Source: a virus. From it: 64,000 nucleotides of DNA. Below, piece after piece: positions 1-63,424 of the stretch. The stretch spans positions 20,365-84,364 of IMG/VR virus record IMGVR_UViG_3300010397_000001, one strand, 5' to 3'. The translations under genes and the position numbers were made by a program. The number at the start of each line of letters is the position of its first letter. Positions within the stretch are counted from its first letter, which is position 1. The notes beneath the pieces are model-generated. The model worked only from the letters and a program-made list of their open reading frames with translations. It searched no databases and was not told where the DNA came from.

Positions 1-251
1 TCGAGAAGTACCGTGGCGTCGGTGTCATTCGTGGCGAGATGACCACCATCGACGTGGAGGAGCTGCGCGTTCAGTGCATGGAGCAAGATCCATCGGGTAA
101 CTTGTGGCGTTCGATCACGACGCGCGTCCTTGACAACGGGTTGTTGGAAGCGGCGCTGGAGCAGGGGCGCATTCCACCTGCCCTGGTGCAGGCAGCCACC
201 AAGACGGTCCCCAAGAAGGAGTATCTGGGTCTTCAGTACCTGAAGAAATGA
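1..251 (+). CDS. Hypothetical phage protein, probably 5'-truncated by the window edge
   Basis: Reading frame is open from the window start to TGA at 249-251; codon usage matches neighbouring genes. Confidence 0.6.
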   Translation, partial: EKYRGVGVIRGEMTTIDVEELRVQCMEQDPSGNLWRSITTRVLDNGLLEAALEQGRIPPALVQAATKTVPKKEYLGLQYLKK

Positions 252-639
252 CCAGCATCACCAGGTGCCCCACAGGGGCTGTGACGTCCTGGGAAAGGCA
301 GGGGGTAGACGTCCCTACCCCCTGTGACTAAAAGCCTGTCAGCGACCCTTACAGGCGCCTTAAAACGGCCATTCATTCACTGAAAGTTACGACGCATGAA
401 GAAGATCAAGACTGATCCGCCCATCTATCTGGAGACGATGGCAGCGGTTGCATGGCTGAACCGTAGGCGTCGTGATGTTCCGTCGGGGTATCCGGTTGGC
501 AAGCGGCACCTTGACCCTCGGATGAACCCAACCGGTTGGAAGGCTGGCGGGCGTGACGCTGAGGAGTATCAGTTCAATCCAGAAATGGTCGGTGCGTCAC
601 GTGCTAGCGGTGTTGAGTTCGGGGAGGTGACTTCAGTCA

Positions 640-1014
640 GTGAAAACTGGGATGCGGATGCGACCCAACATTCAGGGGACGAATGACCCCCAGAACGAGA
701 ACTGCACGCTTGTTCCTGTGACGACAGTGAACCGTCTGCTCCCCAAGCTGTCACCTAACGTGCCGGCGGGGAGCTTCTTCCGCTTCAATGAGGAGACGAA
801 GCTGGTAGAAGCGATCGTCACGCCGGTTGCAGGCTACACAAGCATGGTCCCGATAGCGTGGGATACATGCGCAGACTGCACACGACCCCTCAGGCGCTGT
901 GAGTGCGCCCGTGGTGTATCTGCCAAGTCTTGGATGGTGGAGGCCGCGGAGAAGCGACCTGAGCTGATGCCAGAGGAGGCGCCCAAGAAAAAACTTCGGA
1001 GGATGAAGTTGTGA
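640..1014 (+). CDS. Hypothetical protein with a Cys-rich motif
   Basis: ORF track; CADC..CEC motif; GTGA overlap with the next gene. Confidence 0.55.
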   Translation: MKTGMRMRPNIQGTNDPQNENCTLVPVTTVNRLLPKLSPNVPAGSFFRFNEETKLVEAIVTPVAGYTSMVPIAWDTCADCTRPLRRCECARGVSAKSWMVEAAEKRPELMPEEAPKKKLRRMKL

Positions 1015-60573: not shown

Positions 60574-61304
60574 TGTCGTTCACGAGAACTCAGCTTGTAG
60601 CGGTGCGACGCATCGTGCAGGCTGGAGCGGTTTTCCAGGAAAATATTTCGCGTATGACCATCGCGCCGGACAACAACTCTGGTGTGACCATCAGAGTTCC
60701 CTTCGCGCCGAACGAAGTGCAGCATGAGGAGAGAGGTAGCGAGTGGGCAGTTCTGACGCGTCCACTGCTTACCCCAATCCTTGTTCGTGCCAGGGCACGG
60801 CTACCTCAGATGTCTTTCGATCTGACCATCGTGGACAAACAGGTATTCGTCAGCCAGGGCAGCTCATTCTGGCTGGACGCCGAGACAACTATCACGCAGC
60901 TTGACTCGTACGCCACATCAGGGACGCGCTTGCGCGTTTCATACGGTCAATACGAGTCTGGCCTGTGGTACATCACGTCGTTCTCATTCAAGACTGAAAG
61001 GTATGGCCCCAGCAACGAAGTCGTTCAGGCCATGGCAAGCCTTGTGCTGCGCCGGGCTGGAGATGCCATCGACGCAGTTGGTCCACTGACTGGAGGAGTA
61101 AAACCGAGCCAGCCATCGCCAGCGCCGGCACCACCTCCACAGCAGACGGGGTCGAGAACATATGCCGTCAAGGCCGGTGACACGCTATGGGCGATCAGCA
61201 TCAAGTTCTATGGCACGGGCACCAAGTGGACTCAGATCGCTAATGCAAACGGCGTCAAGGACCCTAGGCGGCTTCAGATTGGCAAAGTACTGAGGATCCC
61301 CTAA
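60573..61304 (+). CDS. Tail tube initiator with LysM domain
   Basis: YAVKAGDTLWAIS..YG..W..IANAN..LQIGKVLRIP. Confidence 0.88.
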   Translation: MSFTRTQLVAVRRIVQAGAVFQENISRMTIAPDNNSGVTIRVPFAPNEVQHEERGSEWAVLTRPLLTPILVRARARLPQMSFDLTIVDKQVFVSQGSSFWLDAETTITQLDSYATSGTRLRVSYGQYESGLWYITSFSFKTERYGPSNEVVQAMASLVLRRAGDAIDAVGPLTGGVKPSQPSPAPAPPPQQTGSRTYAVKAGDTLWAISIKFYGTGTKWTQIANANGVKDPRRLQIGKVLRIP

Positions 61305-62167
61305 TGGCACTCACAGACAGCATGACGCTAAACGGCGCGCCGATCTACAACACGATCGTGCGCAACAACATGGTCGAGGCTTCCTTGTCCATGACGACAA
61401 CTCAAGTGTCACAGTTGACCATCACCTGGACTGACCCAGGTTGGAGTATGTTGGAGTCTGGGCAATTCAACTTGGGAAAGAACGTCGACCTACCTGGCTT
61501 TGCGCTGGAGATCGCCGCGGTTTCGTCTGTTGACGTCGATGGGACTGCCGGCTTCAGCGTCGACTGCCGGCCGAGGTCAGTTCGCGCGCTGAAGAACAGG
61601 CAAGGCGCACGGGTCATGACGAACGTATCTGCGAGTGAGTTCGTTCAGTCAGAATGTGCCGCTGTCGGAGTTGCGAGCTTCGTGCAGTCAAGTGCAAGGC
61701 GTAGGCAAGTAGCACGTGACATGCCTACGCCAGGGCAGCAGGAAAAAACGAACCCACCGTCGAGCTGGACTACGTTTAGCCGGTTGGCGAACGAAGAGGG
61801 GTTCATAGTCTTTGAGGCTGCTGGGACTGTCTACTTCGGACGTCCGTCGTGGCTGCTGTCCAGAACAGTTACCAACGCATTCCTCACCTATGGTGCGTCG
61901 AGCAGTGACCCGTGGAAGGCGATGGCCCTGCCTGAGTGCCACATCACAGAGGACGACGTGGCTAAGACGGTGTCTGGCGAGCTGTCCGGAGAGCGAGGTC
62001 CGTACGTACGGTGCCCCTTCGGTTTAGTAGTGAGCGGCATGTCGTCTCGCTTCAACGGCGGGTACATGCTGACGTCTGTCACCATTGATGCTATGAACGA
62101 CAGCTCCAACGTCCAGATCCAAGGGGGTACCCCTGTGGACCCGATCCCTCAACCACCGGCGGCGTAG
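61304..62167 (+). CDS. Baseplate hub protein
   Basis: Position; SSW....RLA.E.GF..F...YFG, GGY....V. Confidence 0.7.
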   Translation: MALTDSMTLNGAPIYNTIVRNNMVEASLSMTTTQVSQLTITWTDPGWSMLESGQFNLGKNVDLPGFALEIAAVSSVDVDGTAGFSVDCRPRSVRALKNRQGARVMTNVSASEFVQSECAAVGVASFVQSSARRRQVARDMPTPGQQEKTNPPSSWTTFSRLANEEGFIVFEAAGTVYFGRPSWLLSRTVTNAFLTYGASSSDPWKAMALPECHITEDDVAKTVSGELSGERGPYVRCPFGLVVSGMSSRFNGGYMLTSVTIDAMNDSSNVQIQGGTPVDPIPQPPAA

Positions 62168-63424
62168 ATGGCTGTGCTGCATGTCGGAGACGTCGTGTCC
62201 ATCCGGGGCACTGGCGCGATGGTGCACGTTCCCTTTGTGGCACCAGGTTTTGTGTTCGGTCCGCTGGAGATGTTGTATTCGGCGCGAGCCGGAGACAGAG
62301 TCATCGTGGGTCAGTTGGAAGGTGCTCCAGAAGACCTTGTTGTTATGGGTAAGGTCGACGCCTTCGTCAGCCCATACACCTACATCTACTTTTTCGAGAC
62401 AGCTACTGAACGAGATGCTGTTTTCGATGGCACGCCGATGGACATGTCTTCTCCCACCTTCGCATGGGTGGATGACGACCTGAAGCTGTACGTGTGGACT
62501 GATGAGACAAACGCATGGCGTCAAGTTTCATGGGATGAAGCGCGTATAGCTGCGATTGAGGCAGTGAACGCGTCGCAGAGTAGTTCGATCGCCACCAACG
62601 CGTCTGACATCTCCGCCCTAGCTACCAGAACTACCAACCTAGAAGGTCTGGCGGTGTCGGACACCTCGACCATCGACCTGACGCTATCAGGTAGTTCGTG
62701 GCCCAAGACGCTGAGTGCATCCTTCATCCTGAACAGCATCACACTGGACAACTTGTCCGGCGTAGTTGTCTCAGGATCTACTGCTGGTCAAATGCTCCGG
62801 CACAACGGAAGTAACTACGTCAACACTTTCGTAAACCTGGATGACCTGGCTGACGTCGATGCTACGAGCCCAAGCGGCAAACCTGTGCTGCGTTGGAATC
62901 CGAGCACTAGTAAGTGGGAGGCGTACGACCAGATATCGCGAGGGCCTGCCGGTGGTTCGTACTACACAGGTGGTCTGACGATGGGCAGCACAGGTACAGA
63001 GGTGGCGTTGGCTGCATGGACAGACTCTGACGCGACTGTGTTCGAAAACAACAGGATCTACGAAGCAACGGTTGTGTGCGGCGTCGCAGAGACTTCACTG
63101 GGGACATTCCACCTGGGAACTGTTCGGGTACGGAAGACGGTCAACAGCACAACATCTCAGTTGTTGATGACGTTCCGAGCTGACTTGCCTGCTAACAACG
63201 GCGCCTTCGTACTCCAAAGAACGGCAGTCGGATACGTGAAGAACGTCTCTGGGGCGGACATCACGGCTACGCCAGGGATCACCAACCAGCGAGTAGTCGG
63301 ATCGGGAACGTTCGACTTGTTCGGCGACGCGACACTTCCGATGACGTTGTACTTCAAGGATCTCGGGAGCGTTTCGGATCCTAACCTGAACAGCTACGTT
63401 GCTATAGCAACCAGCATCACCTAG
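62168..63424 (+). CDS. Baseplate spike (gpV-like N-terminus) with fibre-like extension
   Basis: V.VP...GP, GDRVIV; coiled coil; LDNLSGV..GQMLRHNG and LDDLADV..VLRWN repeats. Confidence 0.65.
   Translation: MAVLHVGDVVSIRGTGAMVHVPFVAPGFVFGPLEMLYSARAGDRVIVGQLEGAPEDLVVMGKVDAFVSPYTYIYFFETATERDAVFDGTPMDMSSPTFAWVDDDLKLYVWTDETNAWRQVSWDEARIAAIEAVNASQSSSIATNASDISALATRTTNLEGLAVSDTSTIDLTLSGSSWPKTLSASFILNSITLDNLSGVVVSGSTAGQMLRHNGSNYVNTFVNLDDLADVDATSPSGKPVLRWNPSTSKWEAYDQISRGPAGGSYYTGGLTMGSTGTEVALAAWTDSDATVFENNRIYEATVVCGVAETSLGTFHLGTVRVRKTVNSTTSQLLMTFRADLPANNGAFVLQRTAVGYVKNVSGADITATPGITNQRVVGSGTFDLFGDATLPMTLYFKDLGSVSDPNLNSYVAIATSIT

Follow-up and report, generated by a model that had tools for sequence, protein, structure and literature searches.

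We analysed a 64,000-nucleotide stretch of the genome of an uncultured phage, probably from soil (bases 20365-84364 of the 84,364-bp IMG/VR virus record IMGVR_UViG_3300010397_000001, which is rated 100% complete). This stretch is hereafter called the window and the phage G000. The window is studded with exact copies of the 13-bp dyad TTCA-N5-TGAA, and this array is real and very strongly selected. With a probability that we put at roughly 0.55, its copies have been selected as binding sites of a symmetric, homodimeric, sequence-specific DNA-binding protein encoded by the phage itself. The array and the starts of its exact copies, in window coordinates, are:

232-62539, no strand, array of exact sites: 52 exact copies in the window plus 71 one-mismatch copies
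Exact starts 1-18: 232, 372, 632, 2390, 2685, 4884, 5659, 7510, 7996, 8001, 8031, 12351, 13453, 16624, 17445, 19263, 20108, 23448
Exact starts 19-36: 23541, 24470, 24812, 25489, 26974, 27345, 29466, 30963, 32426, 33076, 33908, 34400, 35138, 35340, 36431, 37150, 39563, 41585
Exact starts 37-52: 42944, 44024, 44611, 45012, 45043, 45934, 46842, 47146, 50461, 52642, 52884, 53393, 56126, 57039, 58862, 62527

An initial annotation of this DNA had reported about 50 exact copies. All 51 starts given there were recovered, and we found one more at 58862. The three one-mismatch copies that it named (11531, 27728 and 38624) are present as well. Its estimate of less than one copy expected by chance agrees with 100 dinucleotide-preserving shuffles of the window, which yielded a mean of 0.63 copies (standard deviation 0.80, maximum 3). 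With up to one mismatch allowed, the window contains 123 copies versus 18.2 ± 4.2 expected. The whole genome holds 65 exact copies, about one per 1.3 kb, and none of a back-to-front control pattern. Half-site frequencies predict 2.7 copies in the genome, so that 65 is an enrichment of about 24-fold; relative to dinucleotide shuffles it is about 80-fold. The spacing is strict, as had been claimed: among all spacers from k=0 to k=20, TTCA-Nk-TGAA occurs 52 times at k=5 and 0-4 times at each other k in the window. The inverted order, TGAA-Nk-TTCA, is not enriched at any spacing (0-4 copies each).

To separate DNA from protein sequence, synonymous codons were shuffled 500 times within the 100 genes predicted by a codon-usage gene caller, which cover 85% of the genome. 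The shuffles kept the proteins and the codon counts of each gene, and none of them touched the 13 copies that are fully intergenic. On average 19.4 copies remained (standard deviation 1.9, maximum 25) versus 65 observed, so that this codon-preserving control, proposed with the initial annotation, did not reproduce the motif count. About 6 coding copies are left by shuffling versus about 50 observed, a loss of roughly nine-tenths. Within the genome, 49 of the 65 copies lie inside genes, 26 in codon phase 2 and 23 in phase 1; 13 are fully intergenic and 3 sit at gene edges (window: 21, 19, 10 and 2, respectively). The only phase-0 copies are 24470 and 29466, both at gene ends, where the TGA serves to stop translation. 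The 5-nt spacer is variable, as noticed before, with 62 different spacers among the 65 copies. Since phases 1 and 2 are used about equally and almost all spacers differ, the signal lies in the DNA and not in the proteins.

Comparison with orthologues gave a corresponding picture. The terminase peptide DSYRE is common to the related Gordonia phages ScarletRaider and GMA6 and to the GMA6-like fragment G009, and only G000 spells it with the motif. The portal peptide VSVIE is also shared with relatives that lack the word, and in both proteins the motif arises from codon choice alone. Some sites bring residues that are absent from orthologues, such as DSTLE in RecA (versus D-x-K-F/Y-K) and a terminal E in the sheath protein (versus N). 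In total, 145 of 405 site-encoded residues match the orthologues.

We then counted half-site variants in the whole genome against the expectation from half-site frequencies. Forms with a single C-to-G change at position 3, which weakens one half-site, were strongly enriched (TTGA-N5-TGAA, 22 versus 1.4; TTCA-N5-TCAA, 17 versus 2.5), and the two TTAA variants were found 8 and 3 times (0.3 expected each). The doubly weak TTGA-N5-TCAA occurred 4 times versus 1.3. Taken together, position-3 variants were 11-fold enriched, while position-1 variants numbered 6 in all versus 12.2 expected. The stem-preserving CTCA-N5-TGAG was not found at all, and there was no preference for C after TTCA. The related phage G006 likewise has a graded position, at another base (TATC 69, TTTC 39). 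Judged from these counts, one weak half-site (TTGA or TTAA) appears to be tolerated and two do not, a pattern to be expected of a cooperative homodimer more than of an enzyme target or an RNA hairpin. The strict N5 spacing, the symmetry, the DNA-level signal and this half-site rule are all consistent with a selected site for a dimeric protein, as first suggested by the initial annotation.

A second dyad built in the same way, GTCC-N5-GGAC, is present in 15 genomic copies (1.9 expected). Eleven of the copies start in the window at 3190, 3737, 10687, 14748, 16578, 30154, 37176, 38215, 48061, 49555 and 50647; four more lie upstream of it. The same dyad is enriched in the related partial record G001 (13 versus 2.0). 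A tie to the TTCA array was considered and rejected: hybrids are not enriched (TTCA-N5-GGAC, 0 versus 2.8; GTCC-N5-TGAA, 2 versus 1.8), and GTCC-N5-GGAC is thus a separate matter.

The sites are spread over the replication half (0.82 per kb) and the structural half (0.69 per kb) at similar density. Several stand in conspicuous positions:

2390-2402, no strand, site that ends 11 nt before the start codon of a MerR-type helix-turn-helix (HTH) gene, over its ribosome-binding region
2685-2697, no strand, site that begins 3 nt past the stop codon of this HTH gene
7996-8043, no strand, cluster of three sites (7996, 8001, 8031) upstream of a probable lipoprotein gene and overlapping its ATG at 8039
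24470-24482, no strand, site that supplies the TGA stop codon of one gene and overlaps the GTG start of the next
58862-58874, no strand, exact copy inside the tape-measure gene

The translation from 8039 begins with a probable lipoprotein signal peptide. The closeness of sites to ribosome-binding regions and start codons, pointed out earlier, is real but only in part specific. For ten of the 65 sites the end falls in a zone that reaches from 20 nt upstream of a start codon to 8 nt inside, versus 2.2 expected (binomial P=5.6e-5); however, TGAA alone is 2.6-fold commoner in this zone, so much of the enrichment is compositional. The statement that dnaE, the capsid gene and the tape measure are free of copies held for dnaE (8771-11527) but not for the tape measure (57865-60573), which contains the copy at 58862. 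Nor does it hold for the capsid gene if its open reading frame starts at 50399, because copy 50461 then lies inside. The 4.3-kb gap that spans dnaE is ordinary: in 6.7% of random placements the largest gap was this small or smaller.

We next turned to related genomes. The terminase of G000 is 49.9-53.1% identical to those of the Gordonia phages ScarletRaider, Chidiebere, GMA6 and DalanDe and 48.5% identical to that of the Brevibacterium phage Cantare. G000 has the myovirus-like gene order that is common to relatives of the ScarletRaider/GMA6 type: a minus-strand primase and DnaB are followed by MoxR-VWA, HTH, SSB, DnaE and RecA, and then by a Cas4-like nuclease, RuvC and ParB-DUF4417. Closer sequences were rare. 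With 20 kb as query, megablast matched none of 50,697 phage records, a capsid search of IMG/VR returned nine loci (best 68% identity, the motif in none), and a DnaE search of metagenome contigs returned one fragment with 28% identity. ParB homologues of 55-67% identity were found on Logan contigs of 71-99 kb.

The initial annotation had proposed to look for the motif in related phages. TTCA-N5-TGAA itself is not an array in any of them: it occurs once in GMA6, in none of the nine loci from the capsid search, and 0, 2, 1, 0 and 0 times in the five IMG/VR records G001-G005. What the relatives do carry is dyad arrays of the same manner with other words. This emerged from a scan for all dyads w-Nk-rc(w), in which rc denotes the reverse complement; in 30 order-3 Markov simulations the maximal z for 4-mers was 6.8. 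TTT-N11-AAA occurs 41 times in ScarletRaider (1.6 expected), 34 times in ChisanaKitsune (control 1), 22 times in GMA6 with 21 further copies at N12 (2.9 expected) and 12 times in G009 (1.1 expected). DalanDe, which belongs to the genus of GMA6, has only 3 copies of that word (control 3); its own words are TTG-N7-CAA (87 versus 22.5) and TTGC-N5-GCAA (23 versus 2.9). In the IMG/VR genome G006 (complete, 89,278 bp) we found 74 copies of TGTC-N5-GACA versus 4.1 expected, at N5 only and with a control of 1. The array of G007 (complete, 91.8 kb) is weaker, with AGT-N15-ACT 44 times versus 14, and Cantare has GTGA-N5-TCAC 12 times versus 1.6. The scan revealed no over-represented dyad in G008, whose sequence is 74% complete. 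Four unrelated Gordonia phages (Malisha, GTE8, Tracker and BaxterFox) contain no TTT-N11-AAA at all.

From these comparisons, the dispersed-dyad phenomenon belongs to this phage clade as far as the sequences tell, and the word is lineage-specific. Together with the absence of TTT-N11-AAA from the four unrelated Gordonia phages, the clade members' own words are most simply explained by a phage-encoded determinant. About 8 of the 41 ScarletRaider sites recur as identical 17-mers in ChisanaKitsune and a handful in GMA6, as estimated by eye and not computed; if this holds, site density is kept more than site position.

Other readers and other uses of the word have to be weighed against a phage-encoded dimer. 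The word might be the target of a sequence-specific DNA modification or restriction-type enzyme and serve to mark phage DNA as self. The word is bipartite around an unspecific spacer of constant length, which resembles the sites recognised by Type I and Type IIB enzymes, and like restriction-modification specificities it changes quickly between lineages. The genome also encodes possible DNA or nucleotide enzymes, namely a UDG-superfamily protein, an AAA_33 kinase, a GNAT protein and an arginase-family protein. However, six-frame searches of the genome did not find N6_N4_Mtase (PF01555), C5 DNA_methylase (PF00145) or MethyltransfD12 (PF02086), the search being confined to these methyltransferase families. 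Moreover, restriction targets are normally avoided, whereas the word is enriched 24-fold, and tolerance of one weak half-site but not of two is unlike a fixed enzyme specificity. We consider an enzyme target improbable. It is still less probable that a nucleoid-associated protein or global regulator of the host reads the word and that the phage mimics a host signal. The moderate enrichment at translation starts would suit such a reader. But TTT-N11-AAA is found 22-41 times in the Gordonia-infecting clade members and never in the four unrelated Gordonia phages, although the host species differ, and DalanDe and GMA6 share a genus and differ in word.

Finally, the word might act in RNA, as a UUCA-N5-UGAA hairpin, or might be a by-product of sequence-biased repair or mutation. 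With 97 of the 100 genes on the plus strand every site is transcribed in one sense, and ten sites lie at ribosome-binding regions. A hairpin should nevertheless favour variants that keep its stem, and these were scarce (the doubly weak form and CTCA-N5-TGAG) while the stem-breaking TTGA-N5-TGAA was abundant, which argues against it; a stem of 4 bp would also be very weak. Repair bias should deplete near-cognates, yet only the position-1 variants are somewhat low. The variant counts have thus already largely refuted both forms of this explanation, which we regard as highly improbable.

If the word is read by a phage-encoded dimer, its reader should be among the phage proteins. The initial annotation had named three candidates:

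2413-2682, plus strand, g29, an 89-aa MerR-type winged-HTH protein (PHROG MerR-like regulator, E=8.8e-4)
16840-18294, plus strand, g43, 484 aa, ParB_N (Pfam PF02195, 1.1e-8) and DUF4417 (PF14386, 8.7e-19)
3591-4439, strand not stated, g31, a histone-like protein

The histone-like protein gained nothing from the comparison, as a homologue was detected at E<=1e-4 in G006 alone.

For g29 some support was found. With 15.1 bits it scores below the Pfam MerR_1 cut-off (21.6), while its homologues from G006 and G007 reach 33.5 and 23.2 bits. Of all G000 proteins, only g29 had tblastn matches in each of the four complete dyad-rich relatives but none in Cantare, G007, G008, G001 and G002. A profile search then picked up a divergent homologue in G007 (E=4e-15), whereas Cantare and G008 again gave no match. 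The family is thus present in G000, G006, DalanDe, GMA6, ScarletRaider, ChisanaKitsune and G007, so that no strongly dyad-bearing relative lacks it. The ScarletRaider member is gp87 and that of DalanDe gp80, and an 87%-identical HTH (P0062) is encoded on a 1.5-kb contig. The start of the family gene coincides with a site in three of the six genomes examined: in G000, in G006 (+15 to +27) and in ScarletRaider (+7 to +23). Operators of the MerR family are dyad-symmetric, are bound by a dimer of a MerR_1-domain protein and lie in the spacer between the -35 and -10 promoter elements; the word has the dyad symmetry, and most of its copies are intragenic.

Several observations speak against g29 as the reader. 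In ChisanaKitsune, GMA6 and DalanDe there is no site at the start of the HTH gene. G011 encodes a family member (E=5.5e-15) and has no dispersed dyad; conversely, Cantare has its GTGA-N5-TCAC array without one, and the distant phages G013 and G015 have over-represented palindromes without a g29-type HTH. In addition, the region of the recognition helix is well conserved among phages with different words. On the sequence comparisons we slightly favour g29, but only as a tentative candidate; some other phage protein is a somewhat more doubtful possibility. Small phage proteins of the g29 type comprise 648 cluster representatives. A profile search for further virus contigs with this HTH returned only the GMA6 record and one 7.8-kb fragment. 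The family profile also matches three large proteins, P0063 (1,015 aa), P0065 (1,320 aa) and P0067 (623 aa), which contain 8-16 tandem copies of the domain.

Alternatively, g43 might read the word, in which case the sites would be loading sites for a ParB-like, NTP-dependent clamp, comparable to dispersed centromere or operator sites, or targets of an enzymatic activity of DUF4417. No dyad-bearing genome of the clade lacks the gene; Cantare, too, has it, along with 12 copies of GTGA-N5-TCAC, while the HTH was not found there. In ScarletRaider the ParB protein is gp114, in DalanDe gp98. ParB_N groups GMA6, ScarletRaider and G009 (75-83% identity), all of which use TTT-N11-AAA, while the ParB_N domains of DalanDe, G000, G006, Cantare and G007 are each only 31-59% identical to all others, and each of these phages has its own word. 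For the full-length protein, GMA6 and ScarletRaider (same word) are 70.7% identical versus 31.0% for GMA6 and DalanDe (different word), whereas other core proteins differ little between these pairs (62-76% and 56-73%). Many polar residues of DUF4417 are invariant, as would be expected of an enzyme, and fusions of ParB with DUF4417 are phage-enriched and without known function according to the relevant part of a preprint (10.1101/2025.10.10.680097).

Other features of g43 do not suit a reader. G008 has the gene and no dyad. In G009, DUF4417 is only 25% identical to that of GMA6 (ParB_N, 83%), and the word is TTT-N11-AAA all the same; DUF4417 therefore cannot set the specificity, while the sequence grouping of ParB_N agrees with all word classes. 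The idea that the ParB allele simply predicts the word was rejected for the DUF4417 domain, and the ParB tree is star-like, without resolved branching. Neither a sequence-reading HTH nor a C-terminal dimerisation domain was detected in g43, and its profile matches to PDB entries end within the N-terminal region of ParB/Noc. No site lies near the start of g43 itself in G000 or of its counterpart in ScarletRaider. The AlphaFold2 model of g43 is confident, with a mean pLDDT (predicted local distance difference test) of 81.8; for the fold of DUF4417, profile searches gave no sequence relative in the PDB beyond ParB_N, and there was no look-alike in the Atlas. On balance we think g43 unlikely to be the reader.

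The DUF4417 domain occurs in two very different types that are about 25% identical (window 16840-18294; loci L043, L015 and L020). G009 (L043) joins a GMA6-like ParB_N to the other DUF4417 type, which points to domain-level recombination inside the gene. Just downstream of g43, at 18494-19876, lies the gene for the 460-aa arginase-family protein (PF00491, 7.5e-53); homologues stand in the same place in G006, G007 and, weakly, G008, and not in the Gordonia phages or Cantare. Further genes encode an Acb2/Tad1 hairpin-domain protein of an anti-defence sponge family (32442-33098), the UDG-superfamily protein (36690-37409), the AAA_33 kinase (22809-23309) and the GNAT acetyltransferase (24478-24837). 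Most of these four proteins have no homologues in the compared relatives.

The annotation of G000 rests on scans of 50 proteins against Pfam and 30 against PHROGs, with about 40 small proteins left out. Within that scope neither an integrase nor an immunity repressor of the L5 gp71 type was found, and there was no ParA among the 50 proteins scanned against Pfam. The two ends of the record are identical over 123 bp (the end copy is window 63878-64000), which may not be a true terminal repeat but an overlap left by assembly of a circularly permuted genome. One soil-metagenome run, the probable source, contained every word sampled from a 6-kb stretch; two other runs contained 6-9% of the words, which is uninformative.

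Among the compared phages we observed further repeats. An apparent dyad array in G011, AGTTC-N15-GAACT, was rejected since it turned out to be repeated coding sequence: on the reverse strand at 22878-32636 of the L054 record, the 26-bp sequence AAGTTCAACCCCTAYCAYGAYGAACT occurs seven times within 10 kb and looks like a repeated peptide-coding unit. Of the two distant DUF4417-bearing phages without a g29-type HTH, G015 (L085 record, 105,936 bp) has CGTG-N2-CACG 40 times versus 2.8 and G013 (L078 record, 62,783 bp) has GGCC-N11-GGCC 16 times versus 1.8. CCCGGG is enriched in Cantare (L021 and L022; 88 versus 15.7) and G007 (79 versus 27.7), and G007 also has TGATCA 65 times versus 20.9.

A literature search did not find the motif string TTCA-N5-TGAA, and a broader one yielded no relevant paper. 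In the portion concerned, the GMA6 paper lists only palindromes of at least 14 bp; its supplementary Tables S3 and S4 might list some sites. Dispersed palindromic sites that are read by a ParB-fold protein are known from ParB/parS and KorB/OB, and the half-site TTCA/TGAA presumably occurs in the parS consensus. G000 resembles these systems in having palindromic sites and encoding a ParB-fold protein. It departs from them in the N5 spacing, in the lack of a preference for C after TTCA and in having tens of sites instead of a few. Its ParB protein consists of ParB_N and DUF4417 only, with no detectable HTH or C-terminal domain, and no ParA accompanies it among the scanned proteins, so the features of a ParABS system are not assembled here.

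The stoperators of Cluster A mycobacteriophages likewise differ in specificity between related phages. As with those sites, which are read by the L5-type immunity repressor, the copies in G000 are many, spread genome-wide and also placed within operons. Stoperators, however, are asymmetric 13-14-bp sequences oriented with transcription and, according to the relevant part of the source, are bound by a repressor that temperate phages make and that is monomeric and has two domains (PMC9283540), whereas the word in G000 is a perfect dyad with one-mismatch orientations of 22 and 17. Another dyad, the 17-bp TGTTCGG-N3-CCGAACA of the Cluster O mycobacteriophages, is described, in the sections concerned, as being of unknown function (Cresawn et al. 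2015, PMC4351075). By the same account Corndog has 34 copies, 14 between genes and 10 near 5' ends, and all five Cluster O phages share one word. Both cases involve an actinobacteriophage-type genome with more than 30 dispersed copies of one dyad word that has a variable centre and no orientation relative to transcription. But, as far as that description goes, the arms in Cluster O are 7 bp long and invariant, whereas here they measure 4 bp and are graded; here 49 of 65 copies are inside genes, unlike the many Corndog copies between genes or near 5' ends; and the word differs between relatives instead of being shared. Finally, the lytic mycobacteriophage D29 encodes Gp36, a small repressor of the MerR family that binds GC-rich direct repeats and lowers the expression of early and late genes (PMC12266134, in the part relevant here). 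Like Gp36, g29 is a small phage-encoded MerR-type protein; sequence-specific binding of phage DNA is a feature of Gp36. In place of direct repeats, for which that part of the source describes no genome-saturating array, G000 has an inverted repeat in 65 copies, to which g29 is only tentatively linked. The array of G000 is thus of the dispersed-dyad-repeat kind, which has been observed in a few actinophages. Three features set it apart: half-sites that are short and graded, copies that lie mainly inside genes, and a word that turns over within one clade.

How such an array might work can be outlined for a homodimeric reader. Each half-site would be read by one subunit, and cooperative binding would allow a single weak half-site to be tolerated. 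Protein and sites would co-evolve, which would leave each lineage with its own word. Function would rest on coverage of the whole genome rather than on single promoters, since site positions seem to turn over while density is kept. It weighs against this that the sites are hardly more evenly spaced than random ones would be (coefficient of variation 0.83 versus 0.98); 8.5% of random placements were as even, so the difference is not significant. The likeliest function would be a genome-wide brake on transcription, comparable to stoperators, or the marking or organising of the phage's own DNA. A further-reaching idea, which we judge speculative and unlikely to hold, is that this clade of actinobacterial myoviruses of about 85-92 kb uses a fast-evolving genome barcode. 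Each lineage would have a private dyad word (TTCA-N5-TGAA, TGTC-N5-GACA, TTGC-N5-GCAA, TTT-N11-AAA or AGT-N15-ACT), and a co-evolving phage reader would tell self DNA from that of the host or of a co-infecting relative. Such a reader could serve silencing, protection or organisation.

What is new here is the turnover of a dyad word within one clade. With gene order and core proteins conserved and at least five words in use, the clade amounts to a natural experiment. Three of its members, ScarletRaider, DalanDe and GMA6, can be grown on Gordonia, so that the questions of the reader and of what a mismatch between word and reader would do are directly testable. The array also raises the question of why a lytic phage bears the cost of about 50 intragenic sites, some of them with amino-acid changes. 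Assignment of the reader would give a function to a widespread family of small MerR-type phage proteins or to the phage-enriched ParB-DUF4417 fusion. If the words were indeed barcodes, switches of specificity would play the part, among lytic phages, of immunity or incompatibility groups.

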